The notes beneath the pieces were generated by a model. It saw only the letters and a program-made list of their open reading frames with translations. It searched no databases and had not been told where the DNA came from. The position numbers and the translations under genes were made by a program. From Acidimicrobiales bacterium (GTDB lineage Bacteria; Actinomycetota; Acidimicrobiia; Acidimicrobiales; Bin134), in the NCBI GenBank assembly GCA_965115985.1, contig OZ220474.1, positions 2,974,707 through 3,038,706 on the forward strand: a DNA stretch of 64,000 nucleotides, written 5' to 3'. Shown piece after piece: positions 1,261-63,948 of the stretch; positions within the stretch are counted from its first letter, which is position 1, and every line of letters starts with the position of its first letter.

Positions 1261-2580
1261 ATGTCCGCGGTTGCCGGCAAGCGCATCGTGCTCGGTGTGA
1301 GCGGGGGCATCGCGGCTTACAAGGCGATAGAGATCTGCCGGCTGCTGATGGACGGCGGGGCCCACGTGATTCCGGTGCTGACCAGGGGAGCCACCCGGTT
1401 CGTGGGCCGGACCACGTTCGACGCCCTGGCCTCCGAGCCGGCCCGCACCAGCCTGTTCGACGAGGACGATCCCATTCCCCACACCACCCTGGGGCAAACC
1501 GCGGACTGCATGGTGGTGGCTCCCGCCACGGCCAGGGTGATCGGTGCCCACGCCGCCGGCATCAGCTCCGATCTGTTGACCGCCACTCTTTTGGCCACCC
1601 GGGCTCCGGTGGTGATCTGCCCGGCCATGCACGCCGAGATGTGGGAGCACCCGGCGGTGGTCGCCAACGTGGCCACGCTGGTGGAGCGGGGCGTCCACAT
1701 CGTCGGACCGGAATCGGGCCTGCTGGCCGGTGGCGACGAGGGGGTCGGGCGCCTGAGTTCCCCGGAGGAGGTCGTGGCCGCGGTTGGTCGAGTTCTGTCT
1801 CGGGCCGAGGGCCCGGGCCCCGGGGCTCGCGATCGTGATGCCGAGGGCCCGGGCCCCGGGGCTCGCGATCGTGATGCCGAGGGCCCGGGCCCCGGAGCCC
1901 GCGATCGCGATATGGCCGGACTGTCGGTGGTGGTGACCGCCGGTGGCACCCGGGAACCCATTGATCCGATCCGCTACATCGGGAACCGGTCCTCGGGCAA
2001 GCAGGGTCATGCCTTCGCCGACGAGGCCGCCGGTCGGGGAGCCGAGGTGACCATCGTCACCACCGTGGCCCGTCCCGGGCCTCCGGGCGCGACCGTGGTC
2101 GTGGTGGACACCGCCGCGGAGATGGCCGCCGCCACCGCCGGGGCCGCCGCCGATGCCGACGTGGTGATAATGGCGGCCGCGGTGGCCGATTTTCGCCCGG
2201 TCGATCCGGCCGGCGTGAAGCTCAAAAAGCGCGATGGAATGCCGACCATCGAGCTGGAACCCACTCCCGACATCCTGGCCTCGCTGGGGGCGTCGAAGCC
2301 GGAGGGACAGATTCTGGTGGGTTTCGCGGCCGAGACCTGCGACCTGGCCGCCAATGCCGTCGCGAAACTCAGCGGCAAGGGGGCCGACTACATCGTGGCC
2401 AACGACGTGACCGCCGAGAACGCCGGTTTCGCCGGTGACACCAACGAAGTCCTGGTGCTGGCCTCCGACGGTCGCAGGCACCCGGTAGGTTTGCGCTCCA
2501 AGCGGGAGGTGGCCCGAGCCGTCCTCGACCTGGTGGTGGCCGACCGGAGTGGCCGGGGCGGATCCAATACTGGTAGCTAG
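1261..2580 (+). CDS. coaBC: bifunctional phosphopantothenoylcysteine decarboxylase / phosphopantothenate-cysteine ligase
   Basis: 439 aa. The N-terminal flavoprotein domain reads [23 protein letters not shown]. The C-terminal CoaB domain reads [27 protein letters not shown] and ANDV. Confidence 0.93.
1804..1911 (+). repeat. 36-bp x3 in-frame tandem repeat inside coaBC, encoding ([12 protein letters not shown])x3
   Basis: Copies at 1804-1839 and 1840-1875 are identical. The third copy (1876-1911) has 3 substitutions. The array falls in the CoaC-CoaB interdomain linker. Confidence 0.95.
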
Positions 2581-2588
2581 GAGATTCA

Positions 2589-3767
2589 ATGAGCCGAGGT
2601 TCCGACAGCCGGTACCGTTTCACGTCCGAATCGGTGACCGGCGGCCATCCCGACAAGATCGCCGATCAGATCTCCGACGGGGTGCTGGATGCCCTGATGG
2701 AGGCGGACCCCACCAGCCGGGTGGCGTGCGAGACCCTGGTCACCACCGGTTTGGTGGTGGTGGCCGGGGAGATCACCACCGAGGCCTACATCGACATCTC
2801 CCGGGTGGTGCGCGACACCATCACCGGGATCGGCTACGACCGGGAGGACTTCGGTTTCGACGGCAACACCTGCGGGGTCATGCTGTCCATCGACGACCAG
2901 TCCCCCGACATCGCCCAGGGGGTGGACCGGCCCGACCCGGGAGAGCAGGGGGCCGGCGACCAGGGCATGATGTTCGGCTTCGCCTGTGACGAGACCCCGG
3001 AGCTGATGCCCCTTCCCATCCACGTCGCCCACCGGATGGTGGAACGCCTCACCGAGGTTCGCCGCTCGGGGTCGGTGCCCTACCTGCGGCCCGACGGCAA
3101 GAGCCAGGTGACGTTCGAGTACGAGGGAAACCGGCCGGTGGCCCTCGGCACCGTGGTGATGTCGGCCCACCACCGCGACGGGATCACCATGGAGGAGATG
3201 AGGGACGACCTGAGGGAGCAGGTGGTCGATCCGGCGGTGCCCGAGCGGTTCCGGGGGGACGGCTACGAGGTTCTGATCAATCCCACCGGCAAGTTCGTCA
3301 GGGGCGGGCCGGTGGCCGATGCCGGGCTCACCGGGCGCAAGATCATCGTGGACACCTACGGGGGCATGGCCCGTCACGGCGGGGGGGCCTTCTCGGGCAA
3401 GGACCCCAGCAAGGTGGATCGCTCCGGGGCCTACGCCGCCCGCTGGGTGGCCAAGAACGTGGTGGCCTCGGGGGCGGCCACCCGGTGCGAGGTTCAGGTG
3501 TCCTACGCCATAGGCGTCGCCGACCCGGTGTCGGTGATGGTGGAGACCTTCGGGACCGAGACGGTGGATCCGGCCAGGATCGGCCACCAGGTACACGAGA
3601 TCTTCGACCTTCGACCCGCGGCCATCATCCGGGACCTGGATCTGCTGCGGCCCATCTACCGGCCGACCGCGGCCTACGGCCACTTCGGGCGCAGCCCCGA
3701 GAGCACGTTCACCTGGGAACGCACCAACCGGGTGGACGATCTCCGCGCCGCGTTGGGGTTGTCCTAA
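2589..3767 (+). CDS. metK: S-adenosylmethionine synthetase
   Basis: 392 aa with canonical MetK motifs: [48 protein letters not shown]. Confidence 0.97.
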
Positions 3768-3782
3768 CCGCTCACCGGAAAA

Positions 3783-5495
3783 TTGCATGTCCGGGTCCTG
3801 CCCGATGTCGTCGCCATAGATCGCGAGTTCACCTACACGGTTCCCGAGGGCTGGGACGACGACCCCCGCTTCGGGGTGGGATCCATGGTCCGGGTGATGC
3901 TGGGCGGTCGCCGGACGGGGGGGTGGATCACCGCGGTGGACGTGGAACCGCCCGAGGGGGTGGAGCCGGTGCCGCTGGCCCGGTTGAGCGGGTTGGGGCC
4001 CGACGGGGGGTTGATCGATCTGAGCGGGTGGGCGGCTTGGCGCTGGGCCGGCCGTCGGGCCCACTTCCTGCGCACCGCCTCGCCCTCCCGCATGGTGGCT
4101 GCCCGTCCCCGCCCTCGGCGCTCCCGGTTGGTGGCCTCCGACGACCATGCCGACCTGTTCGCCGGCGAGGGTTGTGTTCTGCGGTCGGGGCCCTCGACCG
4201 ATCTTCTGCCCATCGCCGTGGCCGCGGCGGCTCGGGGCCAGGCGTTGATCCTGGTGCCCGACCACGAGCGGGCCGATCACCTGGTGCGGGGTCTGCGTCG
4301 GGCCGGGGCGTGGGCCGTGCGCCACCCCGAGGGTTGGGCCTCGGCCTCGGCCGGGGCCACCGTGGTGGGTACCTTGTCGGCGGCGTGGGCTCCCGCTCCC
4401 GAGTTGGCCGCGGTGCTGGTGGTCGACGAGCACGACGAGTCGTACCGCTCGGAGTCCGCCCCCACCTGGAGCGGCCGGGACGTGGCCCTGGAGCGGGCCC
4501 GCCGGGCCGGTGCTCCCTGCGTCATGTTGTCGCCGGTGCCCAGCCTGGAGGCGCTCCGGTCCCGCCGTCTGCTGCGGCCGGCTCGGGGCGTCGAGCGCGA
4601 CGGTTGGCCGCGGGTGGAGGTGGTGGATCGTCGCGGCGAGGATCCGGTGCGGGCCGGTCTCTATTCCCCGACGTTGGTTCGGGCGCTGCGGGAGGGCACC
4701 CGGGTGGCGTGCGTGTTGAACCGGCTGGGACGTTCGGTGCTGCTGGCCTGCCGGGTGTGCGGCGAGCTGGCGGTATGCACCGAATGCCGGTCGTCCATGC
4801 GTCAGACCGACGACGGGCGGTTGCGGTGCCGGACGGGGGATCACACTCGCCCCCAGATTTGTGCCGACTGCGGCAGCACCGGGATGCGTAACCTTCGGGC
4901 CGGGGTGAACCGGGTCCGTGAGGAGGTGGAGGCGCTGGTGCGCTCCCCGGTGGCGGAGGTCACCGGTAGGGGCTACGACGGCGCGCCCACTGCTCGGGTG
5001 GTGGTGGGCACCGAGGCGGTTCTGCATCTGGGCCGCCCGTTCGACCTGGTGGCTTTTTTAGAGTTCGACCAGGAGCTGCTGGCCCCCCGGTTCCGGGCTC
5101 GGGAGCAGGCGCTGGCCCTCATGGCCCGGGCGGCCCGGGTGACCGGCCCCCGTGCCACCGGCGGGCGCATCCTGGCGCAGACCCGGCTCCCCGACGACCC
5201 CGTGGTGGTGGCCGCGTTCCGAGCCGATCCGGCGATCCTGGCCCGTTACGAGCGGGACCACCGCCAGGAACTCCGTCTGCCTCCCTACGGGGCCATGGCC
5301 GTGGTGTCCGGCCCGGCCGCCGGGGAGTACATGGAGCGCCTCGGCAACCCACCGGGCCTCCGCACGGCCCCCGGCCCGGACGACCGTTTCTTTCTGCGAG
5401 CCCCCGACCACGACGTCCTGTGCGACGCCCTGGCCTCGGTGGAGCGCCCTTCCGGCCGTCTCCGCATCGATGTGGATCCCGTCAGGGCCATCTAG
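3783..5495 (+). CDS. priA: primosomal protein N' (PriA), actinobacterial type
   Basis: 570 aa with a TTG start. It has the Cys-rich zinc-binding insert CRVCGELAVCTECRSSMRQ...CADCGS and keeps the conserved position after metK. Confidence 0.8.
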   Translation: MHVRVLPDVVAIDREFTYTVPEGWDDDPRFGVGSMVRVMLGGRRTGGWITAVDVEPPEGVEPVPLARLSGLGPDGGLIDLSGWAAWRWAGRRAHFLRTASPSRMVAARPRPRRSRLVASDDHADLFAGEGCVLRSGPSTDLLPIAVAAAARGQALILVPDHERADHLVRGLRRAGAWAVRHPEGWASASAGATVVGTLSAAWAPAPELAAVLVVDEHDESYRSESAPTWSGRDVALERARRAGAPCVMLSPVPSLEALRSRRLLRPARGVERDGWPRVEVVDRRGEDPVRAGLYSPTLVRALREGTRVACVLNRLGRSVLLACRVCGELAVCTECRSSMRQTDDGRLRCRTGDHTRPQICADCGSTGMRNLRAGVNRVREEVEALVRSPVAEVTGRGYDGAPTARVVVGTEAVLHLGRPFDLVAFLEFDQELLAPRFRAREQALALMARAARVTGPRATGGRILAQTRLPDDPVVVAAFRADPAILARYERDHRQELRLPPYGAMAVVSGPAAGEYMERLGNPPGLRTAPGPDDRFFLRAPDHDVLCDALASVERPSGRLRIDVDPVRAI

Positions 5496-5567
5496 CTGGT
5501 CGGTACCGTCCCGCTCGGAGTCGGTGCGGATGTCGGCATCGATGTGGATCCGGTCAGGACCATCTAG
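5464..5567 (+). repeat. Direct repeat of the priA 3' end including its TAG (period 72 bp, 2 copies of a 32-bp core)
   Basis: gcatcgatgtggatcccgtcagggccatctag at 5464-5495 recurs as gcatcgatgtggatccggtcaggaccatctag at 5536-5567. Confidence 0.9.
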
Positions 5568-5598
5568 GTATCGGGGTTGAGGGGTGTTTTGGGATGTG

Positions 5599-5630
5599 TT
5601 GTGCCCCCCGGGGGGACCCGGGGGGCACAA
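5599..5630. terminator. Bidirectional stem-loop between convergent priA and the FN3 gene
   Basis: Perfect 14-bp stem ttgtgccccccggg / cccggggggcacaa with loop ggga. It is followed on the + strand by a T/G-rich tract (ctgtttgggtttgggttttggg). Confidence 0.6.
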
Positions 5631-5658
5631 CTGTTTGGGTTTGGGTTTTGGGATCTTG

Positions 5659-8600
5659 TTATGGGCCGCAGACGTCGGCGGCTAGGTCTGCGGGGGTGTC
5701 GCCGTAGTTGGTTCCTTTGAGGCGGCGGCATTCCTCGGTGAGTGCGGTTTTGAACTCGTCGTGGTGGATGGCGGCGAGGGCGTCGCCTGCTTTTTGGCGG
5801 GCTATGGCTTCGCGGCGGGTGTAGGGCAGCGAGCAGACGTCGGCCACTCCGTCGCGGTCCGAGTCGAGGGGGTAGGTGGTGGGCCCGCCCAGGGAGCGGT
5901 TGGTGCAGTAGCCGGGGCCGGTGATGGTGCCCGAGTAGTAGGGGCCGCCGTCGTTGATGGGCGCGTATCCCGGAGCGGCCAGCGTGTCGCCGCCGCAGGC
6001 CTGGTCGCCGTCGGGTTCGGCGGCGCAGGCGGCGTTGACCAGTGCTCGGTATTGGTCGGGGTAACGGTTGGCCAGGGTGATTACCGCGTTTTGGCGGGCT
6101 ATGGCTTCGCGGCGGGTATAGGGCAGCGAGCAGGTGTCGGCCACGCCGTTGCCGTCGCCGTCGAGGGCGAACAGGCGGGCTCCGCCCAGGGATCGGTCGG
6201 TGCAGAAGTCGGGGCCGTCGACCACGCCTGAGTAGTAGTCGTCGTTCACCGGTGGGGCCGAAGTGGGTGTCACCGGGTCGGAGGTGGTGACCGCGCCGTC
6301 GCCGATGGCGTTGGTGGCTCTGACCTCGAATGTGTAGGCCACTGCGCCGGTGCCGGTGTCCAAACCGGTCAGGCTCGCCCCTTCTGCGTCGGCGGCCATC
6401 ATGGTCCACTCGCCGTAGTCGCCGACCCCAACTCGCATGCGGTAGTGCCAGCCGGTGATTTGTGAGCCGCCGTCGCCGGTCGAGGCCCATGACAGGGTGA
6501 TTTCCCCGTCGCCGCCGGTAACGGTCACCGTCGGCGCCGACGGTACCGTCGCCGGGGTGGCCGATTCGGTGGTTACCGCGCCGTCGCCCATGGCGTTGGT
6601 GGCTCGTACTCCGAAGGTGTAGGCGGTTCCGTTGGTCAAGTCGGAAACGACATGGCTAGTGGCATCGGCGGCGAGGTCGGCCCATTCGCCGTCGCCGGTT
6701 CGCACGTGCCATCCGGTGATCGCCGAACCGTTGTCGCCGTTGGAGGTCCACGACAACATCACCATCATGTCGCCGGCCTCGGCGGTCAGCGTCGGCGCCG
6801 GGGGTGTTCCTGCGGGGGTGGCCGACGCGGTGGCGGCCTCGCCGGCACCGACCGCGTTCACCGCCCGCACTCCGAAGGTGTATGCGGTTCCGTTGTCCAG
6901 GTTGGATATCGACACGGTGTTGGTCGCGGAGGTGGTCAGATCGGCCCATTCGCCGTCACCGGTTCGAGACTGCCAGCCGGTGATGACCGAACCGCCATCA
7001 CCGTTGGGGGTCCACGACAGAGTGACCGCCATATCACCGGCTTCGGCGGTCAGCGTCGGCGCGGGAGGCACCACCGCGGGCGTGGCCGAATCAGACCCGG
7101 CTTCGCTGGCTCCCATGGGGTTTATCGCCCGCACCTCGAACGTGTAGGGAACACCGTTGGTCAGATCGGTGATGGTGTGGCCGGTGGTGGTGGCGTCGCT
7201 GTCGGCGATGTCGGTCCACGTCGCGAAGGCGCCGTCGCCGGTTCTCGTGCGGTATTGCCAGCTCGTGGTGGGCGACGCCCAGGTGGGCTCGCCGGGTGTA
7301 CCGGGGGTGCCCGCGGTCCATGTCAGTATTACTTGGCGGTCGCCGCGAGAAGCGGTCACCTGGGCCGGTTGGGGCGGTGTGGTGGACGGGGTGACGGTGT
7401 TTGACTCGAACTCGAATCCTTTGACCTGCTGGTTGTTGGTCACTGCTCGTACTGCGAATCGGTAGCCGATCCCGTTGGACAAACCGGTCACGGTATGAGA
7501 GGTGGTGGCGGGGCCGCTGTTTTCTATGTCGGTCCATGCTGCGTAGCCGCCGTCGTCTTGGCGTTGGCGGTATTGCCAGGCGGTGATGGTGCTGCCGGCG
7601 GAGGCGGCTCCGGCCCATGACAGCATGACCTGGGTGTCGCCGGCTCGGGCGTTGAGTGTTCCTGCGGTGGGGGCGCCGATGGGTATCACCGCGGAGGTCT
7701 CCAGGTGGGGGCCTGGCCCGTAGGTGTTCACTGCTCGTACTTGGAAGGTGTAGCTGACGCCGTTTTCCAGGTTGCGTATCACCGCACCGGTTTCTGCCGA
7801 GGGGCGGTCCGTTTTGAAGTTCGCGGTCTTCGGTATCGTGGTGCCCAGAGTTTCCCAGGCCTCCCAGGGTTCGCCGACGCGTTTTTTGCGAACCTGGTAT
7901 CCGGTCACTCGGTCGCCGCGAACGGTCGCCGATTCGTCCGAAAGCGCAAGCAGCGATGGTTTGGTGACCCTGAACGTGACCTGGGCGTCGCCGGCCTCCA
8001 CCAGTGCTCGTACCGGTGGGTTGGGTACTCGGCCCGGGGTGACGGGCAACGTCTGGGCGGCGGCTCCGGCGCCGATGGCGTTTATCGCTCTGATCCTGTA
8101 GGTGTAGGCGGTGCCGTTGGTCAACCCCGACACGATCGCGGAGGCGGCGGCGGGGTTGCGGCCGGGCACGTCGGTCCAGTCGTCCGCGGCGTCGCAGTCG
8201 GTGGAGAAGTCGCAGTACTGCCACTTGGTGATCGCCGGGCCACCGCTGCCGGCCGACGTCCAGGTGAGGGTCACCTGTCGGTCGCCGCCGGTCGCGGTCA
8301 ACCCCTCGGGGGCCGGAGGAGGGACTCCGGGGGTGACTGGTTTGGATTCCATGGTTATGCCGGGCAACGAGCCCAGTACGGCGCGGATTCTGAATTGGTG
8401 GGCCACGCCGTTGCCGAGGCCGTCGATTTCGAGTTCTTGGCTGTTGTTGAACTGCAAGCCGTTGTTGACGAACGTCCACTCTCCCCAGTCGCCGTCGGCG
8501 ATCTTGTAGGAGTACTCCCAACCGATGGTGCCGCCGAGGTTTTCCATCTGGCTCCTGGTCGAGATCGCGGAGTTGGCCGCGGCGGTGTCCCTGAGGCTCA

Positions 8601-10854
8601 GGATCGCTTTGCTGGTCCCCGCCTTGGCATGAAGAACCGGAAGAACGAAGGTGCCGGCGCCGGTGGAGCCGCCGGCCGAGCCGAGCATCGCGCCGCCGCC
8701 GGGCAGGGGTGGCCCGCCGTAGACGAACGCGGGACCCTCGGTGGCCAGACTGGGACCGTTGTCGTTGTAGTGGCGCACTCTCACTTGGTAGGTCTCGCCT
8801 ATTTTGAAATCGGTGATTGTCGTGCGTTGGTCCAAGGTGCTGGCCACGGTCCACGGACCCCAGGGACCGTCCCCAACCTTCCAGGAAACCTCGTCCCCAA
8901 CCTTGCCTGGTCCACTTCCTCTGAAAACTCGAGGTTTGCCGCCGTTGCTGGGAGAGTCCACATAATAAGCTATGGTCACCCATTTAGGTGCCCCCGGTGG
9001 CCGCTCGTCGCCATGGCCTTTTACTTTGACGACCGCGGACGAGAAACCTTTGCCGAAACTGTTTTCCGCTCGCAAAACCAGGTAACGATCGGAAATATAA
9101 CCTAAAGTAATGCCATCGGGGGCTTGCCCGTTCGCCAGGATGCGGGGCAAAGTGATAGTGTTCAACCCGGCGCACTCCTGTGGGTCGGTGATGTCCACCT
9201 GGTCGTCGCTCGCGTCCTGCGTGCTGTCGCACAACGGAATCCATTTGGTCTCGGCCGCCAAATCCTCCACGGAACCGTCATGCTTGTACTCCCAGGCGGT
9301 GATCGGAGAACCACCATCGCTGCCAGGGGTCCACGACAAAGTAATCCTCGCCGACCCATTGCGCGCTATCCAGTCGGCCTCCCCGGAGAAGTCCAACGGG
9401 GCCGCAGGCACCGTACCCGGGTAAAGATCCTTGGGGGTCTCCACATAGGGGCCGGGGCCGATACGGTTCACCGCCCGAATCCTGAACCGGTAGGGTGTGC
9501 CCGCAGCCAAACCGGGGACCTTGTACGCCCTGGACCCTGTCTTATCCACCTTGGCCAACTCGGTTAAAATTTCTCCGGCTGTCCCGTTGGTTAGGAATGT
9601 TTGGTCGGCGGGGATGGTCATCCACTGGCCCCACTCGCCATCACCGGTCTTTTGCTGGTACTCGTAACGAATCAAAGGGGAATCCCCATCGTTCATGCGC
9701 GTAACACCTCGAGGTTCTGCCCACTTCAAGGTGATCGAGTCCTCTCCCGGATCCTGCCGGAACCAAGTGGTGTCCCCAGCGGGCGCACCGGTGGGTACGG
9801 CACCGGGAACGCTGCCGGGATCGACAACGGGGGTCACGGAGGACTCGGTGCCCGCACCGTTGATGTTCACCGCCCGAACCTGGAAGCGGTAATTCTTGGT
9901 GTTGTCCAAACCGGTCACCACATAAGAAGTGGTGCCCGCGCCGCTGCCGGGGATCCTGGTCCATGGTGTGTCGGAGGGAATCCTCCCTCGGTACTCCCAT
10001 CCGGTGATCGGCGAACCCCCGTCGCTGCTCGCCACCCACGACAAGGTGACCGACTTGTCTCCCGGTGTGGTTCTGAGGTTCTGGGGGCGGCCCGGTTTGC
10101 CCGAGGCCACCACCGGTCCCACCTCGGCGGCGGGACCCGCACCGTTGGCGTTCACGGCTCGAAGCCTGAACCGATAGGTCACCCCGTTGGTCAAACCCGT
10201 GACCTCGAAATCACCGGAATACTGGTCGGAGCCGGGAACGATGTTCCAGGAGGTCCAATCCCCATCACCGGTCTTCTGCTGATACTCGTAGCGCACCGGG
10301 TCAGTCCACCCGGTCTCCACGCTGTCGAACTGGGGCAACGTCCAGTTCAGGGTGATCTTCGAATCATCTGGAGTGGCTCTCAACCCGCCGGGAGCCTGCG
10401 GCAAGCCAGTGATAGTGACCCGTTCGATCCTGGTCGCCAGGTTGCTGTCGCCCTTTTGGCCCGCGGCGTTCACCGCGCGGAGCTTGAAAGTGTAGGAGTA
10501 ACCATTGCGCAGGCCGGTGACGGTGTAGGAAGTGGTGGAGCCGGTGCTTCCCGGGATCGGGTACCACACTCCCTTGTCGGTTTGGGTGGATCCAAAAGGG
10601 CCTACCAAATAGGTGTACTCGTATCCCACGATCGGACTGCCACCGTTGTCGGTCGGGGCACTCCACGTCAATGTCGCCTGCCTGAAACCGGCCACCGCAA
10701 CCGGCTTACTCCTATCACCACCACTGGGCCCCAGAACTATCGACGGCCCCACCTGCTGCTGCGCACCAACACTACCAACCGGCACCAAAACCGCAGCCAA
10801 CAACACCCCGACAGCGGCCCACCCACCAACAGATCGCCCGGTGGAACCGCCCAT
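5659..10854 (-). CDS. Giant secreted protein: signal peptide, about 14 fibronectin type III domains, duplicated Cys-rich DxDxDG-containing C-terminal module
   Basis: The ORF runs 5659-10965. The ATG at 10854 is preceded by AGGA at 5-nt spacing and gives a signal peptide MGGSTGRSVGGWAAVGVLLAAVLVPVGSVGA/QQ. There are about 14 units with the FN3 signature (xTLxW...GGSPITGWEY...TGLxNGxxYxFxVRAVNxxG). The C-terminus carries two roughly 95-aa repeats with LDGDGNGVADTCSLPYTRREAIARQ and LDSDRDGVADVCSLPYTRREAIARQ. Alternative starts are 10917 (ATG) and 10965 (TTG). Confidence 0.85.
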   Translation of the reverse strand: MGGSTGRSVGGWAAVGVLLAAVLVPVGSVGAQQQVGPSIVLGPSGGDRSKPVAVAGFRQATLTWSAPTDNGGSPIVGYEYTYLVGPFGSTQTDKGVWYPIPGSTGSTTSYTVTGLRNGYSYTFKLRAVNAAGQKGDSNLATRIERVTITGLPQAPGGLRATPDDSKITLNWTLPQFDSVETGWTDPVRYEYQQKTGDGDWTSWNIVPGSDQYSGDFEVTGLTNGVTYRFRLRAVNANGAGPAAEVGPVVASGKPGRPQNLRTTPGDKSVTLSWVASSDGGSPITGWEYRGRIPSDTPWTRIPGSGAGTTSYVVTGLDNTKNYRFQVRAVNINGAGTESSVTPVVDPGSVPGAVPTGAPAGDTTWFRQDPGEDSITLKWAEPRGVTRMNDGDSPLIRYEYQQKTGDGEWGQWMTIPADQTFLTNGTAGEILTELAKVDKTGSRAYKVPGLAAGTPYRFRIRAVNRIGPGPYVETPKDLYPGTVPAAPLDFSGEADWIARNGSARITLSWTPGSDGGSPITAWEYKHDGSVEDLAAETKWIPLCDSTQDASDDQVDITDPQECAGLNTITLPRILANGQAPDGITLGYISDRYLVLRAENSFGKGFSSAVVKVKGHGDERPPGAPKWVTIAYYVDSPSNGGKPRVFRGSGPGKVGDEVSWKVGDGPWGPWTVASTLDQRTTITDFKIGETYQVRVRHYNDNGPSLATEGPAFVYGGPPLPGGGAMLGSAGGSTGAGTFVLPVLHAKAGTSKAILSLRDTAAANSAISTRSQMENLGGTIGWEYSYKIADGDWGEWTFVNNGLQFNNSQELEIDGLGNGVAHQFRIRAVLGSLPGITMESKPVTPGVPPPAPEGLTATGGDRQVTLTWTSAGSGGPAITKWQYCDFSTDCDAADDWTDVPGRNPAAASAIVSGLTNGTAYTYRIRAINAIGAGAAAQTLPVTPGRVPNPPVRALVEAGDAQVTFRVTKPSLLALSDESATVRGDRVTGYQVRKKRVGEPWEAWETLGTTIPKTANFKTDRPSAETGAVIRNLENGVSYTFQVRAVNTYGPGPHLETSAVIPIGAPTAGTLNARAGDTQVMLSWAGAASAGSTITAWQYRQRQDDGGYAAWTDIENSGPATTSHTVTGLSNGIGYRFAVRAVTNNQQVKGFEFESNTVTPSTTPPQPAQVTASRGDRQVILTWTAGTPGTPGEPTWASPTTSWQYRTRTGDGAFATWTDIADSDATTTGHTITDLTNGVPYTFEVRAINPMGASEAGSDSATPAVVPPAPTLTAEAGDMAVTLSWTPNGDGGSVITGWQSRTGDGEWADLTTSATNTVSISNLDNGTAYTFGVRAVNAVGAGEAATASATPAGTPPAPTLTAEAGDMMVMLSWTSNGDNGSAITGWHVRTGDGEWADLAADATSHVVSDLTNGTAYTFGVRATNAMGDGAVTTESATPATVPSAPTVTVTGGDGEITLSWASTGDGGSQITGWHYRMRVGVGDYGEWTMMAADAEGASLTGLDTGTGAVAYTFEVRATNAIGDGAVTTSDPVTPTSAPPVNDDYYSGVVDGPDFCTDRSLGGARLFALDGDGNGVADTCSLPYTRREAIARQNAVITLANRYPDQYRALVNAACAAEPDGDQACGGDTLAAPGYAPINDGGPYYSGTITGPGYCTNRSLGGPTTYPLDSDRDGVADVCSLPYTRREAIARQKAGDALAAIHHDEFKTALTEECRRLKGTNYGDTPADLAADVCGP

Positions 10855-10931
10855 CGAAGTCCTAGCAACCCGCCGGACACGGCCGACGGCACGGCCCCAA
10901 AACCTGGATTCAATCATAGGGGCGAGTATCG

Positions 10932-10948
10932 CCCCCCCCCCCCCCCCC
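10932..10948 (-). repeat. Homopolymer G17 (C17 on + strand) upstream of, or at the extreme 5' end of, the FN3 gene
   Basis: Counted directly: 17 consecutive C at 10932-10948. This is 78-94 nt upstream of the preferred ATG 10854, or codons 7-11 (GGGGG) if TTG 10965 were used. Confidence 0.9.
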
Positions 10949-11090
10949 GTCAAGTCTCTGGGCAAAAAGTTCTAGGGTTTAGAGTGTTGCCCCCGGCGGG
11001 CCCGGAGGCGACAAAGGTCCAGATACCCGAGCCAAGAAACGCTTCAGGAAGTGGAGTCGCCCCGGGAGGGCTGGAAGCCCACCCGGCTGG

Positions 11091-11723
11091 CTAACGTACC
11101 TCCAGGATTCGGTAGCCCCGGCGGGATCCGAGCCGGGTGGTGGGGTGGCCCTGCTCCTCCAGCCATCGGGCCAGCGAGTCCGAGCCCAGGTTCTTGTTGA
11201 CCACTAGGTAGGCCCGCCCTCCGTCGTCCAGCCTTCCCAGCCAGGTGGTCAGCATCCGGTGGAGGGCGACCTTGCCGATACGGATGGGAGGGTTGGAGTA
11301 GATGGCGGCGAAGCGAACATCGGGAGGAACCTCGTCGGGCAGGCATGCGGTGGCGGTTCCACCGGCGTGGCGATCCAGGTTGGCCCGGCACAACTCCAGC
11401 GCTCGAGGGTTGACGTCCACGGCCCACAGCGGTACCTGGGGGGCCCACCGGCTCAGTGCCACCGCGATCGGCCCGTACCCGCAGCCCAGATCCAGCAGCG
11501 GTCCGGTTCGGGGTGGGCGAGGGCCCTCGGCCAGCAAGTACCGGGTTCCCCAGTCCACCTCGTCGGCCGCGAACACTCCCCGGTCGGTAGCCAGCTCGAC
11601 GTCCAGATCACCCACCCGCAACTCGACCGTCCCCGCCCGCCGCCCGCTCTCCGGCCCGGTGCTGAAGTAGTGGGAGTTGCTCACACCTCGACGGTACCCC
11701 GTCCGGCGGTCCTGCCCGCCCAT
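11091..11723 (-). CDS. Class I SAM-dependent methyltransferase, small-domain (RsmC/RsmD-like) type
   Basis: LLDLGCGYGPIAVALS (motif I) and IYSNPPIRIGK (NPPxR catalytic motif). The start is uncertain (ATG 11723 or GTG 11684). Confidence 0.8.
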   Translation of the reverse strand: MGGQDRRTGYRRGVSNSHYFSTGPESGRRAGTVELRVGDLDVELATDRGVFAADEVDWGTRYLLAEGPRPPRTGPLLDLGCGYGPIAVALSRWAPQVPLWAVDVNPRALELCRANLDRHAGGTATACLPDEVPPDVRFAAIYSNPPIRIGKVALHRMLTTWLGRLDDGGRAYLVVNKNLGSDSLARWLEEQGHPTTRLGSRRGYRILEVR

Positions 11724-11830
11724 CCGGCTCGGAGGCCTGCTGGGTGGTTCCGCCCGCCCATCCGGCTCGGAGGCTCCGTCCGGTGGTCCCGTCCGCTCAT
11801 CCGGCTCGGCTGCTTGGGTGCGGGCCTTCC
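11714..11830. repeat. 38-39 bp x3 tandem repeat at the methyltransferase 5' end / def upstream region
   Basis: gcccgcccatccggctcggaggc occurs at 11714 and 11752. A degenerate third copy (gtccgctcatccggctcggctgc) lies at 11791. Confidence 0.85.
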
Positions 11831-12379: not shown

Positions 12380-13260
12380 TGATCGACCCGCCGGTCGAGG
12401 TCCACCGGCTCGTATACCTCGGCACCCCGGTGGAATCGGTGCCGTTCCTGGAAGCGCTGGTCGAGGCCGGTTTCGACGTGGTCCTGGTGGTCACCCGGCC
12501 CGACAAGCGCCGGGGACGGCGGACTGCTCCCACCCCCAGCCCGGTGAAGGCCGCCGCCCGGAGGTTGGGGGTTCCCACCACTTCCGAGGTGGACGACGTG
12601 CTCGACGTCGATGCCGACCTCGGCGTGGTGGTGGCCTTCGGGCGGATCATCAAACCCCATGTGCTCGACCGGTTGGCCATGGTCAACGTCCACTTTTCGC
12701 TACTGCCCCGTTGGCGGGGCGCGGCCCCGGTGGAGCGGGCCATCCTGGCCGGTGACCGGGTGACCGGGGTGGGCCTGATGGAGGTGGACGAGGGACTCGA
12801 CACCGGCCGGGTGTATCGCCAGGTCGAAGTGCCCGTGGCCCCCGATGCCACCGCGGCGTCGCTGCGGGCCGACATGGTGGAAGCCGCCGTTCCCATGCTG
12901 ATCGGGGCCCTCCAGGATGGCCTGGGCAGGCCCGAGCCCCAGCGGGGGGAGCCGGTGTACGCGGCCAGGATCACCCGTGACGAGCTTCGCCTCGACTGGG
13001 AGCAGCCGGCAGCGTTTTTGTGCCGGCAGGTCCGGGTCGGTGGGGCGTGGACGACCTGGCGAGGGAAAACCCTGAAAATCTGGTCGGCCCTCTCGGTCGG
13101 GGGGTCGCAACCGGTCGGCCGGATCGACGGCGATCTGGTCGGCACCGGCGAGGGACGGTTGCGGCTGCTGGAGGTTCAGGCCGAGGGCGGCCGCCGCCAG
13201 GCCGCCGGGGACTGGTACCGGGGGGCCCGCCCGACCCCCGACGACCGCCTCGGGCCGTGA
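12379..13260 (+). CDS. fmt: methionyl-tRNA formyltransferase
   Basis: Within ORF 12097-13260 the homology begins at VYLGTPVESVPFLEALVEAG. It continues with HFSLLPRWRGAAPVERAILAGD. The proposed GTG 12379 overlaps the def TAG by 1 nt. Confidence 0.85.
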   Translation: MIDPPVEVHRLVYLGTPVESVPFLEALVEAGFDVVLVVTRPDKRRGRRTAPTPSPVKAAARRLGVPTTSEVDDVLDVDADLGVVVAFGRIIKPHVLDRLAMVNVHFSLLPRWRGAAPVERAILAGDRVTGVGLMEVDEGLDTGRVYRQVEVPVAPDATAASLRADMVEAAVPMLIGALQDGLGRPEPQRGEPVYAARITRDELRLDWEQPAAFLCRQVRVGGAWTTWRGKTLKIWSALSVGGSQPVGRIDGDLVGTGEGRLRLLEVQAEGGRRQAAGDWYRGARPTPDDRLGP

Positions 13261-52211: not shown

Positions 52212-52760
52212 ATGTCAGCTCTCATTGGTCTTGATCCCACATCCGGCCCCCTCGACAGGGTCGGCGATCATGATTTCGTCCCCCGACCGGCCAGCCTGGA
52301 TGGGGCGGTGGTCGGTCTGGTGGCCAACGGCCTCGGCGAGGGGGAGATCTTCCTGGATGCCCTCTACGACGAGTTGGCCGGGCTGAGCGACCTGAAGGCC
52401 CCGCTGAAAGTGGTGAAGGGCTCGGTGTCGATCCCGCCCGATCCGGGGGATTGGAGCCGTCTGACCGAGGAGGCCACGGTCGCCATCACCGGCTTCGGCG
52501 GTTGAGGAAGCTGTAGTGCCCGCAGTTTGCGGGACGCAGTGGAGCTGGAGTGGGCCGGTGTACCCAGCGTCGCCATAGTCCACGAGCAGATGAGGGGCTC
52601 GGCCCAGGCCATCGCCCGGGTGAGCGGATGCCCCGACTACGAGTTCCTCGCCGCCGACTATCCCTGGATCCCCACCGCCATCTGGTCCAAGGAGGAATGC
52701 CTGGAACTGGCCGAGATCATGGCCCCCAAAGTTCTGGCCACCCTCACCGGCCGGCACTGA
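52212..52760 (+). CDS. UGSC-motif selenoprotein candidate (in-frame TGA 52503-52505 read as selenocysteine)
   Basis: Track ORFs 52212-52505 and 52527-52760 share one frame and are separated only by TGA. The joined product reads ...ATVAITGFGG-U-GSCSARSLRDAVELEWAGVPSVAIVHE.... The second ORF has no ATG or GTG start and no Shine-Dalgarno, and a hairpin follows the TGA. Confidence 0.7.
52506..52546 (+). promoter_or_regulatory. Candidate bacterial SECIS element
   Basis: A stem cccgca/tgcggg (52519-52524 / 52528-52533) with apical loop GTT begins 13 nt after the UGA. Possible lower helices are agct(52509-52512)/agct(52543-52546) or ctg/cag. Confidence 0.55.
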
Positions 52761-54645: not shown

Positions 54646-54750
54646 GCGGGTTGCCACCGGAGCGCCGCCAAAGGACTTGCAGGGCCGCCCCGTCTTTTTG
54701 CTTCTGGCGGCGCGGCGGCGGGTTGCCACCGGAGCGCCGCCAAAGGACTC
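54646..54750. repeat. 32-bp core repeated at 72-bp spacing upstream of the cupin gene
   Basis: gcgggttgccaccggagcgccgccaaaggact occurs at 54646 and 54718. Confidence 0.88.
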
Positions 54751-54765
54751 GCAGCGCTTGTGCGG

Positions 54766-57622: not shown

Positions 57623-59311
57623 TCAGCGGGGCACGACATAGCCCGATTGTTCCCGGTCCCAGGTATCGGGGGTGATGCCCTGCTCGCGTAGTTTGAACTT
57701 CTGGACCCGCTCGGAGGGGGTCTTGGGCAGTTCGTTCGCCCAGCGTACGAAGCGGGGTACGGCGAAATGGGCCATGCGGGGCACGCAGAAGTCGAGCAGG
57801 GCGACCTCGGAGAGCTCGTGGTCGGCCTTGAGCACCACCACGGCCATCACCTCCTCCTCGCCCAGCTCGGAGGGCACGCCGATCACCGCCGACTCCAGTA
57901 CCGCTTCGCAGGTGTTGATCACCGCCTCCACCTCGTAGGAGGAGATGTTCTCCCCCCGGCGGCGCACGCAGTCCTTCATACGGTCGATGAACGTCAGATA
58001 GCCGTCGGAGTCCAGGCGGCCCCGGTCGCCGGTATGGAACCACAGGTTGCGAAACGCCTCCACCGTGGCATCGGCCATGTCGAAGTAGTGGTCGAACATG
58101 ACGTAGGGCTTCTTGGGACGCACCACGATCTCGCCCGCGGTGCCGGCGGGAACGGGGCGGTCCTCGGAGTCCACCACCGCCACGTGATAGAGGGCCGATT
58201 CCCGCCCGGCGGTGCCGATCCTGCGCACTCCCCGGCGGTTCTCGGTGGCGATGGCTGCCTCGGTCATGCCGTACACCTCGGTCAGGTGGACCCCGAAGCG
58301 CTCCTCGAACCGCTCCCATATCTCCACCGGGCAGGGGGCCCCGAAGCCGTTGCGCACCGGGTTGTCGGCGTCGTCGGGCCGCTCGGGCTGCTTCCACAGC
58401 ATCATCAGGAGCCCGCCCTGGTAGTTGAACGCGGTGATGCCGTCGGCCCGGCAGCGGTCCCAGAAGCGGCTGGCCGAGAACCGCCGGTCCATCACCAGTC
58501 GGGCGTCGGCCTCCATGGCGCACATCACGCTGGTGTACTTGGCGTTTATGTGGAACAGCGGGAAGGCGGTGTAGAGCACGTCGTCGGCGTGGTAGCCCAC
58601 CAGATCGACGGTGTGGCGGGCCAGGTTCAGATTGGCCTCGTGGCTCAGCATCACCCCCTTGGACGGGCCGGTGGTGCCCGAGGTGTACAGGATCACCGCG
58701 GTGTTCCGGTAGTCGATGGCGGGCTCGGGCGGCGAGGAGCCGAGGTACAGATCGGCCAGCTCGTGGACGGTGACATGGCCGGGAAACTCGGGGGTGCCGG
58801 TGGCGCTTCCCCCACGCCCGTCGGCCCGGGTGGGGGCACCGCCGGTGACATGGCCGGGGAACTCGGGGGTGCCGGTGGCGTTCGGGCCGGGCGGCCGATT
58901 CACCACCACGTGCTCGAGGTCGGGCAGGCTCCTGGCCGCCTCGGCGATGCGGTCCAGGTACTCGGCGTCGCACACCACCGCCCGCGAGCGGGACTGGGCC
59001 ACCAGGTATTCCAGCAGGTGGCCCCGGTAGGCCTGGTTGATGGGCACCTCCACCACTGCGGCCTTGGTCATGGCGAACCAGGCGTCTATGCACTCCAGCG
59101 AGTTCTGCATCATCAAGCACGAACGGTCGCCCGGCTCCAGCCCCAGCGAGACCAGACCGGCCGCCAGCCTGTCCGAGTCCAGATGAACCCCGACGTAGGA
59201 CTTGTCCCGCCCCTCCACGGTCAGCGCCCGCCGCTCGCCGTTCACCTCCGCCTTGTGGCGAATCCAAGCCCCGATGGTGGGGGGATCGTCGGGGGTGCCG
59301 GTCGAACTCAT
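57623..59311 (-). CDS. AMP-dependent acyl-CoA synthetase/ligase
   Basis: YTSGTTGPSKGV (AMP-binding motif), YGMTE, HTGDRG, and a C-terminal K in LPKTPSERVQK. The preferred start is ATG 59311 (the ORF runs to 59362). Confidence 0.9.
   Translation of the reverse strand: MSSTGTPDDPPTIGAWIRHKAEVNGERRALTVEGRDKSYVGVHLDSDRLAAGLVSLGLEPGDRSCLMMQNSLECIDAWFAMTKAAVVEVPINQAYRGHLLEYLVAQSRSRAVVCDAEYLDRIAEAARSLPDLEHVVVNRPPGPNATGTPEFPGHVTGGAPTRADGRGGSATGTPEFPGHVTVHELADLYLGSSPPEPAIDYRNTAVILYTSGTTGPSKGVMLSHEANLNLARHTVDLVGYHADDVLYTAFPLFHINAKYTSVMCAMEADARLVMDRRFSASRFWDRCRADGITAFNYQGGLLMMLWKQPERPDDADNPVRNGFGAPCPVEIWERFEERFGVHLTEVYGMTEAAIATENRRGVRRIGTAGRESALYHVAVVDSEDRPVPAGTAGEIVVRPKKPYVMFDHYFDMADATVEAFRNLWFHTGDRGRLDSDGYLTFIDRMKDCVRRRGENISSYEVEAVINTCEAVLESAVIGVPSELGEEEVMAVVVLKADHELSEVALLDFCVPRMAHFAVPRFVRWANELPKTPSERVQKFKLREQGITPDTWDREQSGYVVPR
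58769..58885 (-). repeat. 75-bp x1.5 in-frame duplication inside the acyl-CoA synthetase, TGTPEFPGHVT...(25 aa)...TGTPEFPGHVT
   Basis: ggtgacatggccgggRaactcgggggtgccggtggcg occurs at 58769 and 58844. Confidence 0.9.
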
Positions 59312-62370: not shown

Positions 62371-63534
62371 CTAGTGGGAGTGGGAGAAGAACTGGAGGAT
62401 CTTGGACTTGTGACGGATTTCCTTCTCGGTGGCCAGGAGATGATCCACATGGTGGTTCTCGTTGCCGCAGTCGTCCACCGAGTGCTCGAGCTGAATGGTG
62501 GAGTGCTGGATTCCGTACCGACTGGCGATCGAGCGAATCCGTTTTAGCTGCGAGTCGGTTCCGCCCTCGTACTCGTAGTCCGGGTCGGCCAGAACGTGGG
62601 CGGTCATCGACAGATACCCGGAGGTGATGGTTCGGACATGTACGTCGTGGACGATGGTTACGCCCTCCACGTCTTCGATTTCGGCGCAGAGCTTGAACAC
62701 GTCCACGTGCTCGGGAGTTCCGTCGATCAGCACGTGGAACACCTCGGTCACCAGATTCCAGGAACTCATGAGGATCAGCAAGCCAATGACCATACTGAGG
62801 ATCGGGTCAACGACGTCCCAGCCCAGGCTGAGCACCACGACCCCGGAAACCACCACGGCCACCGACCCCAGCAGGTCGGCCAATACATGCTGGAAGGCAC
62901 CCTCCACGTTCAGACTGTGCTGGGACTGCCGATGGAGAATCCAGGCCACCAGGACATTGATCAACAGACCGGCGGCACCGACGATGAGCATGAGCGCGCC
63001 CTCGACTTCGGCCTCGTCGCCGATTCGGTGGAAGGCCTCGTAGAAGATCCAGGCCACGATCACCCACAGGGACAAAACGTTGAACAACGCGGCCAGTATC
63101 TCGGTTCGATAGAAGCCGAAGGTCCGGTGGGTCGAGGGCGGCCGGTCGGCGGCCCACATGGCGAACAGCGCCAGCCCGATGGCCGCGCTGTCGGTGAGCA
63201 TGTGCCCGGCATCGGCGATAAGCGCCAAGCTGCCCGAGGCAATACCGCCGATCACCTCGATCACCATGAAGGTGGTGGTCAAGGTAACCGCCAGAATCAG
63301 ACTGCGGCGGCTGGCCTCCCGCAGGTCGTGATGGTGGTGCCCGTGATCGTGGTCATGGTGGTGGTCGTGCCCATGATCGTGGTCATGACTGTGGTCGTGA
63401 CCATGGTGGTGATCGTGCTCATGACTGTGGTCATGCCCGTGATTGTGACCATGGCCACCACCATGATCTTCCTCGTGACCATGGTGGTGATCGTGCCCAT
63501 GCTCATGGTCGTGACCACGATCAGATTTTGCCAC
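62371..63534 (-). CDS. Cation diffusion facilitator (CzcD/ZitB-type) exporter with 65-residue His-rich N-terminus
   Basis: CDF TM core (GSLALIADAGHMLTDSAAIG, HVLADLLGS) and a C-terminal cytosolic domain. The N-terminus reads GHDHEHGHDHHHGH...HDHDHGHHHH. The GTG start shares one base with the upstream TAG (TAGTG). Confidence 0.92.
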   Translation of the reverse strand: MAKSDRGHDHEHGHDHHHGHEEDHGGGHGHNHGHDHSHEHDHHHGHDHSHDHDHGHDHHHDHDHGHHHHDLREASRRSLILAVTLTTTFMVIEVIGGIASGSLALIADAGHMLTDSAAIGLALFAMWAADRPPSTHRTFGFYRTEILAALFNVLSLWVIVAWIFYEAFHRIGDEAEVEGALMLIVGAAGLLINVLVAWILHRQSQHSLNVEGAFQHVLADLLGSVAVVVSGVVVLSLGWDVVDPILSMVIGLLILMSSWNLVTEVFHVLIDGTPEHVDVFKLCAEIEDVEGVTIVHDVHVRTITSGYLSMTAHVLADPDYEYEGGTDSQLKRIRSIASRYGIQHSTIQLEHSVDDCGNENHHVDHLLATEKEIRHKSKILQFFSHSH

Positions 63535-63761: not shown

Positions 63762-63785
63762 GATCTGGCCTTTCTGATGGTGGCT

Positions 63786-63842
63786 GGCACCCACTTGGTG
63801 CCCGGTATCGCAAACGATAATCACCACTGTCCCCCAAGTCAA
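63786..63842 (-). promoter_or_regulatory. Candidate promoter and two operator-like dyads upstream of the His/Cys-rich gene
   Basis: On the minus strand: TTGACT (63842-63837), then 17 nt, then TATCGT (63819-63814). The dyads are TATCG-caaa-CGATA (63806-63819) and GGCACC-cactt-GGTGCC (63786-63802). Confidence 0.35.
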
Positions 63843-63849
63843 TAGCCTT

Positions 63850-63948
63850 GAGTCAACGGCTTTGGAGCTTGGGTTTTTCGCTACCGCAATCATCCACGGC
63901 GCTGTCAACGGTCTTCGAGTCAACGGCTTTGGAGCTTGGGTTTTTCGC
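63850..63948. repeat. 32-bp core repeated at 67-bp spacing upstream of the metal-export operon
   Basis: gagtcaacggctttggagcttgggtttttcgc occurs at 63850-63881 and 63917-63948. Confidence 0.9.

Follow-up and report, generated by a model that had tools for sequence, protein, structure and literature searches.

We analysed a 64-kb stretch of DNA (the window) from an Acidimicrobiia sponge symbiont of the genus Candidatus Poriferisocius, together with the tandem repeats that it carries. The nearest named matches of its MetK protein, at 85–90% identity, are Candidatus Poriferisocius or Acidimicrobiia metagenome-assembled genomes (MAGs). The first 27 kb hold housekeeping genes (coaBC, metK, priA, def, fmt, rsmB, ribD, hisG, infC, rpmI and rplT) and are collinear with congeneric genomes at 75–86% nucleotide identity. 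Gene calling relied on a codon model derived from the window itself, with Pfam as a check, and gene starts are approximate and conservative; coding density is ~88%, genes align full-length to their orthologues without frameshifts, and a search of the window with Rfam returned three tRNAs only.

Relatives were collected by a HisG scan, keeping one genome per species, which gave 80 loci of ~21 kb: L001–L022 are congeners (83–91% HisG identity, many of them closed chromosomes) and L023–L080 are other Acidimicrobiales. Repeat density was compared with 20 congeners (368 kb of syntenic DNA) and 58 other Acidimicrobiales loci; four more congener loci (L166, L169, L170 and L171) span positions 27–39 kb of the window. 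The congener genomes are MAGs with the same gene order and similar chromosome sizes (2.9–4.1 Mb). Several are metaMDBG-style long-read contigs, judging by their record names, and others were deposited as complete chromosomes, so the contrast between window and congeners described below is not due to sequencing technology. Exact-protein look-ups retrieved no conspecific or sister-strain sequence, and the best HisG identity in a metagenome scan was 75%.

Tandem arrays in the window and its relatives

Tandem Repeats Finder (TRF; merged arrays, period ≥15, score ≥50) returned 29 arrays in the window compared with 0–3 in order-4 Markov simulations of it. An independent lag-identity detector (runs ≥20 nt at ≥90% identity, lags of 10–200 nt) found 32 loci that together occupy 3,849 nt (6.0% of the window), whereas ten Markov simulations yielded none. 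Copies are 100% identical at 17 of these loci, and between-copy identity across the window loci ranges from 76 to 100%. Arrays add ~4–6% to the window sequence.

This density sets the window apart from its relatives. The lag detector gave 5.0 loci per 10 kb in the window, compared with 0.27 in the 20 congeners (10 loci in 368 kb, an 18-fold lower density across the shared syntenic genes) and 0.47 for the other Acidimicrobiales; the highest single comparison locus, L044, reached 3.0. TRF arrays with a period of ≥35 nt number 23 in the 64-kb window and 2 in the 368 kb of congeners, a rate ratio of 66 (Poisson P = 8 × 10^−34). Within this syntenic comparison, a burst of ≥35-nt tandem duplications is specific to the window lineage. 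We dropped the converse statement, that short periods show no excess: at TRF score 30, periods below 25 nt are mostly noise (1.9, 1.9 and 0.4 per 10 kb in simulated sequence), the counts lie near that floor and the comparison is underpowered.

A preliminary description of this DNA had listed 31 array starts, each of which we recovered within a few bases as a head-to-tail or near-tandem repeat. One of the possibilities that it raised, that duplication is unusually frequent, held when density was checked against related genomes. The range of 2–7 copies that it gave does not hold at eight loci, which have only 1.3–1.9 copies, and its ‘few or no substitutions’ is accurate for the 17 identical loci but not for those in which identity falls to 76%. 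It had missed the restriction to a single lineage, and also the 35–75-nt size gate and the A-B-A loci with novel filler that are set out below.

The units are unrelated to one another. All-versus-all local alignment of 33 units, on both strands and in all rotations, revealed no shared consensus: the best score between loci was 29, within the 23–35 range of shuffle maxima, the exception being two parts of one locus. Units without common sequence above the shuffle level led us to reject a dispersed repeat family of the MIRU, REP or MITE type, although 26 of the 34 loci fall outside coding sequences (CDSs) or straddle their ends, the location expected for such families. These alignments uphold the earlier proposal of independent local duplications with no common consensus. 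Phase-variable contingency simple sequence repeats (SSRs; units of 1–9 nt) were also rejected, because the units here are 17–75 nt long and frame-preserving.

The arrays are listed below by position, first those inside genes and then those at gene ends and between genes. In A-B-A loci, two copies of a segment A enclose a unique segment B.

Arrays inside genes:
1804–1911: 36 nt × 3.0, in frame, CoaBC interdomain linker
13986–14196: 36 nt × 5.2, in frame, preceded by one degenerate copy; RsmB, between its NusB and methyltransferase domains
14538–14658: 48 nt × 2.5, in frame, RsmB
19576–19632: 30 nt × 1.9, in frame, C-terminal tail of ribosomal protein L20
38798–39015: 51 nt × 4.3, in frame, loop of an inositol-monophosphatase-family protein
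44378–44839: 42/63-nt in-frame repeats, His/Asp/Glu-rich loop of ZnuA; an ordinary low-complexity coding repeat
58768–58880: A-B-A (A 38, B 37, lag 75), in frame, loop of an acyl-CoA synthetase
63328–63523, minus strand: His-rich repeats of a cation-efflux gene; an ordinary low-complexity coding repeat

Arrays at gene ends and between genes:
5461–5567: A-B-A (A 35, B 37, lag 72); copy 1 holds the priA stop TAG at 5493–5495
11698–11809: 38 nt × 2.9, 79% identity, between divergent methyltransferase and def genes
13249–13402: 36 nt × 4.3; every copy bears the fmt-stop/rsmB-start GTGA overlap and is open in the rsmB frame
15346–15487: 65 nt × 2.2, beginning 2 nt past the stop of a MoCF-domain gene
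16471–16664: founder copy of 38 nt with the ribD stop, followed by a unique hairpin segment of 36 nt and by 38 nt × 3.2
20396–20462: 24 nt × 2.8, palindromic unit, holding the stop of a SpoU methylase gene
21896–21967, minus strand: 36 nt × 2.0, 80% identity, 4 nt from the start of a Rieske oxygenase gene
23180–23387: 37 nt × 5.6, 100% identical; copy 1 holds a stop at 23196–23198
25626–25727: A-B-A (A 27, B 48, lag 75), holding the stop of an MgtE-like gene
28293–28427: 65 nt × 2.0, spanning two convergent stop codons
29281–29411: 35 nt × 3.6, 76% identity, divergent intergenic region; the unit bears the palindrome GGTACGTGTACC
30779–30910: nested 19/38-nt repeats with the small-subunit stop and the large-subunit ribosome-binding site (RBS) and ATG of a xanthine-dehydrogenase-family enzyme
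34428–34583: 36 nt × 4.0, tRNA-Asn/tRNA-Met spacer; contains a 13-nt sub-repeat
34693–34800: A-B-A (A 33, B 42, lag 75), beginning 2 nt past tRNA-Met
36437–36559: 55 nt × 2.2, 100% identical, holding the stop of an ACT-domain gene
37454–37637: 61 nt × 3.0, filling the spacer from the start of a PAP2 gene to the stop of the next gene
38244–38350: 17 nt × 6.2, divergent intergenic region
39438–39539: 54 nt × 1.9 (A 48, B 6), 14 nt past tRNA-Val
40838–40900: 20 nt × 3.2, holding an amidohydrolase stop
41688–41811: 63 nt × 2.0, taking in both stops of the convergent TauD and acyl-CoA dehydrogenase genes
46255–46367: 41 nt × 2.8, holding the stop of an ABC-3 permease gene
47343–47421, minus strand: 38 nt × 2.1, start of one gene and stop of the next
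49435–49656: 68 nt × 3.3, 100% identical, between an enoyl-CoA hydratase stop and a GMC oxidoreductase start
54646–54757: A-B-A (A 40, B 32, lag 72), between two minus-strand genes
63850–63948: A-B-A (A 32, B 35, lag 67), at the window end

Local origin, repeat periods and filler DNA

Alignments between the window and its congeners, which run through the genes at 75–86% identity, break at the arrays. The surplus over congeners amounts to whole numbers of units at 13249, 14008, 14538, 23180, 25626, 28293, 37454 and 38798, and the units at 13249, 14538, 28293, 30779, 37454, 38244 and 38798 are recognisable as the congeners’ single-copy sequence. The fmt/rsmB junction at 13249 measures 46–55 nt in congeners and already contains an imperfect 10-nt direct repeat there; the window has 108 nt more (3 × 36). 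Inside rsmB, the array at 14008, of which 13986 is the degenerate leading copy, exceeds all 11 aligned congeners by 216 nt (6 × 36), most of its unit being absent there, and that at 14538 adds exactly 48 nt (16 residues) to an ancestral imperfect repeat encoding ETVAIDD/VPVPIDD. At both 13249 and 14538, congener comparison places an imperfect direct repeat at the right spacing in the ancestral sequence, and slippage classically starts from pre-existing repeats of this kind. Further along, the window surplus is 184 nt (~5 × 37) at 23180 relative to four congeners, 75 nt at 25626, where A is joined directly to C in 10/10 congeners, ~65 nt at 28293, where the congeners’ 64–80 nt correspond to one unit, and exactly 153 nt (3 × 51) at 38798 relative to 4 congeners. 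At 37454 the unit is approximately the entire ancestral spacer (68 nt in L169) and the surplus is about 2 × 61 nt.

Other sites are shorter in congeners too. The CoaBC linker site, between Pfam domains that end at residue 175 and start at residue 218, has only 18–27 nt in congeners, and the spacer at 15346 is ~31–64 nt, mostly <45. At 11698 most congeners have a 22-nt spacer and two have insertions of their own; the window insert is flanked on both sides by the ancestral TTGACGGTAAC motif. The spacer at 16471, the founder copy of the 16545 array, is largely unalignable (~53 nt between aligned blocks in L001 versus 196 in the window), and the congener spacer bears a TTGAC...TAGCGT promoter-like motif. 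The xanthine-dehydrogenase subunit junction is a 4-nt ATGA overlap in L166 and L169 and has been expanded independently in the window (+91 nt), L170 (+77 nt, 9880–10010) and L171 (+72 nt, 9900–10010). At 38244 the 17-nt unit derives from the palindrome GCTATCCGATAGC, found in congener spacers ~127 nt shorter than that of the window. This palindrome is operator-like and lies between two divergent genes in L166, L169 and L171; in the window (38244–38400) one half of it is amplified to six 17-nt units and the original palindrome is broken by 13 nt. The locus at 58768 encodes the peptide ATGTPEFPGHVT-GGAPTRADGRGGS-ATGTPEFPGHVT in a region without counterpart in solved homologues. The 30-nt repeat of L20 (gene at 19209–19679) lies in a ~45-residue C-terminal extension past the Pfam domain, the length of which varies among congeners.

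Because the units are mutually unrelated, the surplus comes in whole units and the units match congener single-copy sequence, the arrays are, as judged by these alignments, independent local duplications that were later amplified in register. At most loci that can be compared with congeners, the alignments show the units to be of local origin. The inserted DNA is not solely a copy of adjacent DNA at 23180, 25626 and 16471 and over most of the 14008 unit. The 23180 unit consists of 23 ancestral nt and 14 nt absent in congeners, in four of which the 23-nt segment A meets the right flank directly.

With the His-rich repeats set aside, the periods are 17, 20, 24, 30, 35, 36 (five loci), 37, 38 (four loci), 41, 48, 51, 54, 55, 61, 63, 65, 65, 67, 68, 72, 72, 74 and 75 nt (three loci). 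Periods of 35–38 nt account for 11 of these 32 loci (P = 5 × 10^−6; 3 × 10^−4 after correction for scanning), and no period exceeds 75 nt. Periods are gated to 35–75 nt with modes at 35–38, 61–68 and 72–75 nt, which is a new feature. When 166 loci from outside the window (2.27 Mb) were pooled, their periods showed similar modes, at 35–36 (seven loci), 60–62 (five) and 71–76 nt (nine, of which five at 72), with a trough at 46–58 nt; the size gate may therefore be a property of a background process of the whole clade.

Also new is the A-B-A(-C) structure of eight loci (5461, 16471, 25626, 34693, 39438, 54646, 58768 and 63850), with two copies of 27–48 nt at 91–100% identity around 32–48 nt of unique DNA (6 nt at 39438). 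The lag is 72–75 nt in 6/8, about twice the main period mode. B DNA is absent from congeners at the three comparable sites, namely 16471, 25626 and the 23180 unit. We found no template for B segments on either strand of the window, no similarity of B to its flanks or to the reverse complement of A above that of shuffles, and no match in 2.2 Mb of comparison loci. Events that contain filler look more like products of end-joining or of an integrase.

One such route would be off-target spacer integration by Cas1–Cas2 (‘neo-CRISPR’), in which a staggered attack of ~36 nt duplicates A around a captured B of ~36 nt. Actinobacterial type III and type I CRISPR arrays combine 36–37-nt repeats with spacers of ~36–38 nt, a sum that fits the 72–75-nt lag, and off-target integration that creates new repeat–spacer–repeat units has been reported in E. 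coli. Six loci with a lag of 72–75 nt, A of 27–40 nt and B of 32–48 nt would suit this route, as would the uniqueness of B and its absence from congeners at the comparable A-B-A loci 16471 and 25626. We nevertheless consider it very improbable. Integrases duplicate a fixed length, whereas A varies from 27 to 48 nt and B from 6 to 48 nt; there are only two repeats at each locus and nowhere a second distinct spacer; no Cas family turned up among the 50 window proteins scanned with Pfam, and the window contains no CRISPR array; and three B segments had no match in IMG/VR, although with exact matching only this is a weak test. Off-target integration would also leave the pure tandem arrays of 35–68 nt unexplained.

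Coding constraint and the source of the duplications

All eight arrays that lie wholly within a CDS have periods divisible by 3 (36, 36, 48, 30, 51, 42, 75 and 78 nt; P = 1.5 × 10^−4), in line with the rule stated in the preliminary description, compared with 10/26 of the other loci, which is the proportion expected by chance. They sit in the interdomain linkers of CoaBC and RsmB, the L20 tail, loops of the inositol-monophosphatase-like protein and the acyl-CoA synthetase, and His-rich segments. We modelled placement by collapsing the arrays and dropping duplications of the observed lengths at random, which put 86% of events inside CDSs. None of the 16 arrays with a period not divisible by 3 lies in a CDS, an outcome with a random-placement probability of 10^−13.6. 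That purifying selection shapes where arrays survive is supported by these counts.

The same probability all but excludes errors of assembly or polishing as the origin of the arrays. Although the window comes from an uncultured MAG, we give this reading almost no credence: an artefact should be blind to frame, yet 16/16 arrays with periods not divisible by 3 avoid CDSs and 8/8 internal arrays keep the frame. Copies in many arrays have diverged, moreover, with 33 transitions and 16 transversions between them, and several congeners from similar long-read pipelines lack arrays.

The strength of this filter also bears on whether purifying selection has been relaxed by a small effective population or a bottleneck, such that slightly deleterious duplications accumulate at an ordinary mutation rate. 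The organism is a sponge symbiont, the arrays enlarge its sequence by ~4–6%, and in-frame insertions occur even in the RsmB methyltransferase domain and the inositol-monophosphatase fold, all in keeping with relaxation. We consider this account improbable because congeners of the same genus, with similar chromosomes, have ~1/66 of the ≥35-nt arrays, because the CDS and frame filter is fully effective (0/16) and window genes remain full-length without frameshifts, and because relaxation does not predict a lower size limit of 35 nt.

Gene ends call for a separate account. The preliminary description had pointed out that arrays outside genes tend to contain a stop or start codon, and descriptively this is so: about 13/26 non-internal loci (~50%) include a stop. 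Among tolerated random placements, 31% are expected to include a stop, 25% a start only and 43% to fall in pure spacer; relative to these values, stops are in mild excess (P = 0.03), and loci with a start only are fewer than predicted (P = 0.02). Ancestral spacers (22–45 nt in congeners) were shorter than those modelled, which makes the mild excess of stops uncertain. Since tolerated random placements already favour gene ends and the stop excess is mild, coding constraint accounts for most of the pattern at gene ends, with no need for targeting. Of the two explanations offered previously, frequent duplication filtered by selection is retained, and a process directed to the ends of open reading frames (ORFs) or transcripts is not required; the enrichment left after coding constraint is too slight to lend it much weight.

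Stop-containing tandem duplications occur at a low rate elsewhere, in L044, L050, L007, L019 and L022. In L044 the last 63 nt of hisG and the stop are repeated 2.9 times as a 72-nt unit, with 67-nt and 59-nt stop-containing repeats at neighbouring genes; L050 has repeats of 89 nt both at the GTGA overlap of fmt/rsmB and where ribD ends, along with a repeated TGATG stop/start overlap. These 3′-end duplications (L044:8679–10624; L050:6734–6884, 9791–9911 and 18551–18760) have periods of 59, 67, 72, 89 and 189 nt. L044 comes from a hydrothermal-vent MAG and L050 from a Ca. Aldehydirespirator MAG. At the mgtE-like stop, L007, L019 and L022 have stop-containing duplications of 10–12 nt. Recurrence at the same junctions hints at site preference, and is also expected from a small set of neutral sites.

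Were duplication targeted to gene or transcript ends, by stalling at RNA polymerase, terminator hairpins or coupled stop/start junctions, the terminus enrichment would be mutational and not selective. The excess of stop-containing loci over 31% agrees with such targeting, as do the independent expansions of the xanthine-dehydrogenase junction in the window, L170 and L171, the sharing of the fmt/rsmB overlap with L050 and of the mgtE stop with L007, L019 and L022, and the strong hairpins of some units. Targeting is nonetheless unlikely in our estimation: eight arrays lie deep within genes, in linkers and loops, several adjoin tRNA genes or sit in divergent promoter regions, start-only loci are depleted, and the mean hairpin z-score is −0.6. 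The approximate gene starts and shorter ancestral spacers raise the expected share of gene ends, and the excess may vanish. An origin driven by hairpins was rejected, as strongly stable folds occur in only ~6/31 units; the control contrast is confounded by coding versus non-coding sequence.

We consider it probable that, in the window lineage, local duplications of 35–75 nt arise or persist one to two orders of magnitude more often than in congeners. Every locus would be a separate event that copied the DNA at that spot. Once two copies were present, slippage or unequal exchange could add or remove whole units, giving 2–6 copies, many of them 100% identical, and purifying selection would eliminate the events that damage proteins. 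Three classes survive: duplications of a stop or of a stop/start overlap, in which translation of the protein still ends in the first copy and that of the next gene still begins in the last; duplications of a whole intergenic spacer; and duplications that keep the frame within linkers and loops. When the stop codon is part of the duplicated segment the protein stays unchanged, and a duplication across a stop/start overlap leaves both genes intact yet uncoupled, the GTGA of fmt/rsmB and the ATGA of the xanthine dehydrogenase being examples. We infer that duplications of 35–75 nt are either born more often or collapse less often.

Several features go beyond simple slippage. Slippage does not account for the sharpness of the size gate (1 locus at 25–34 nt versus 12 at 35–44 nt; P = 0.003), nor for the B filler of the A-B-A loci and of the 23180 unit, which is unique DNA. 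Nine arrays end in a partial copy of 12–35 nt at or near 100% identity, too long to represent chance pre-existing repeats, of which fewer than one of ≥12 nt at such spacing is expected in the window. In ~10 arrays the remainder is 3–14 nt, and flanking microhomology is 0–1 nt at 1804, 21896, 37454 and 41688. A further reservation concerns extent: the data cover 64 kb of a 3.37-Mb chromosome, and the genome-wide picture is an extrapolation that holds if the window is representative, in which case the chromosome would carry ~1,500–1,700 such loci.

The 35-nt lower limit, together with a resemblance to the mutation spectra of flap-nuclease and single-stranded DNA (ssDNA)-exonuclease mutants, leads us to conjecture that the most likely cause is that replication forks process long 5′ flaps or displaced single strands in an altered way, or else loss of a pathway that collapses repeats. 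Tetramers of the single-stranded-DNA-binding protein (SSB) have site sizes of 35, 56 and 65 nt, which the 35-nt threshold and modes near 35, 51–55, 61–68 and 72–75 nt recall; this is numerology at present, and a conjecture. More tentatively, the lineage could be a natural ‘minisatellite mutator’, in which a size-gated process inserts quanta of 35–75 nt with modes at ~36, ~65 and ~73 nt. The insert would be an adjacent copy, or a copy with untemplated or foreign filler, and a molecular ruler would set its size; candidates for the ruler are a staggered cut of the integrase type and a flap or displaced strand that is coated by SSB and evades nucleases. Such a mutator is a possibility that we rate well below the elevated rate of duplication itself; if it were true, the same ruler should operate at a low rate across the Acidimicrobiales, given their similar period modes.

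Other features of the window and comparison with known repeat systems

A 5.6-kb block at 5496–11090 holds one gene of 1,650–1,770 residues with at least 11 fibronectin type III (fn3) domains and has an AT skew of −0.27. It is absent in 11 aligned congeners, where the gap between priA and the methyltransferase gene is mostly a few bases and at most ~290 nt. On the minus strand at 10932–10948, a G17 homopolymer forms the 17-nt spacer between a −35-like TTGACG and a −10-like GATACT, ~14 nt upstream of the ATG of this giant fn3-repeat gene, the product of which begins with a signal-peptide-like sequence. The tract is a candidate phase-variable promoter of a surface protein; it is the only SSR-type candidate and is separate from the arrays.

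At 52212–52760, a UGSC-family gene appears to be split into two ORFs by an in-frame TGA (52503–52505). The site reads GFGG-TGA-GSC, equivalent to the U-G-S-C motif of the family, and a stable hairpin lies downstream; the gene probably encodes a selenoprotein and is not a pseudogene. Between EamA and PAP2, the segment at ~34200–36600 carries tRNA-Asn, tRNA-Met, a pyridoxal-phosphate (PLP)-dependent decarboxylase gene, an ACT-domain gene and three repeat loci. In L166 and L169, EamA is next to PAP2 and no gene was called in the interval, and the segment looks like an insertion or deletion beside tRNA genes. The amidohydrolase gene by tRNA-Val (39567–40856) has its best match, at 91%, on a 3.4-kb TARA Oceans scaffold. 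The search with this region (39–41 kb) returned no syntenic congener among its matches, and the next matches lie in unrelated neighbourhoods, which suggests that the gene was acquired horizontally.

To our knowledge, minisatellites are generally scarce in prokaryotes, and for Poriferisocius or Acidimicrobiia our literature search turned up no paper that deals with tandem repeats. The claim in the preliminary description that the pattern had not been described was nevertheless overstated. Tandem repeats of Ehrlichia ruminantium and microhomology-mediated tandem duplication (MTD) were already known and are the closest precedents, and stop-containing duplications exist at low density in other Acidimicrobiales, which weakens the claim further.

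Repeat units in E. ruminantium are mostly ~150 bp, within inflated intergenic regions and at a coding density of ~64%; they are larger, and the coding density lower, than the 35–75 nt and ~88% of the window. That organism is an AT-rich pathogen of the Rickettsiales, whereas the window comes from a high-GC sponge symbiont. A paper on E. ruminantium (PMC10710844) describes a genome rich in locus-specific, actively varying, non-coding tandem repeats. As in the window, many repeats there lack a common consensus, are mainly non-coding and are made or resized by local duplication, and they are a genome-wide feature peculiar to one lineage, whereas in our lineage the feature has been seen in 64 kb; between-strain variation in copy number is documented in E. 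ruminantium, whereas the window is known from one genome. Many unrelated, mainly non-coding repeat loci peculiar to the lineage are what the window likewise contains.

MTD, with a bias towards in-frame events, has been described by Dan et al. (bioRxiv 10.1101/2020.03.03.972455). Short segments are duplicated between short direct repeats in MTD, as they may be at some window loci; in both, the survivors in coding sequence are biased to frame, and the imperfect direct repeats of congeners at 13249 and 14538 fit the model. MTD events are mostly subclonal and revert quickly, whereas the window arrays are fixed, reach 5.6 copies and include some old enough to have diverged; the window also has loci without microhomology (1804, 21896, 37454 and 41688) and others with 12–35-nt remainders or novel filler. 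RecA-independent slipped misalignment in E. coli belongs to the same comparison. Mutants of yeast rad27 and E. coli mutants in the polA 5′-exonuclease or in recJ, sbcB and xseA show raised duplication of tens of bases at short repeats, and in such flap-endonuclease and ssDNA-exonuclease mutants tandem repeats are destabilised; many of the duplications, but not all, have short repeats at their flanks. The window would share with them a duplication spectrum of tens of bases, the cause in the window being conjectural. The MIRU-VNTRs of mycobacteria, similarly, are minisatellites of 40–100 bp at operon junctions, often at stop/start overlaps and with variable MIRU copy number; they form one dispersed family, unlike the mutually unrelated units of the window.

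With ~5 loci per 10 kb beside 20 syntenic congeners almost without them, the window offers a clean natural experiment. The arrays reveal where a compact genome tolerates insertion (across stops, over whole spacers, and in linkers and loops), and they show the uncoupling of overlapping, translationally coupled genes and the birth of intergenic spacers, duplicated promoters and RBSs, and repeat-bearing protein linkers. The size gate and the filler-bearing A-B-A events point to a specific defect or activity in DNA transactions. Genomes of this kind are also prone to short-read mis-assembly and to mis-annotation, through false N-terminal extensions and spurious small ORFs in arrays. Set against these known systems, what is new here is a size-gated, selection-filtered burst of locus-specific minisatellites in a compact, high-GC genome.

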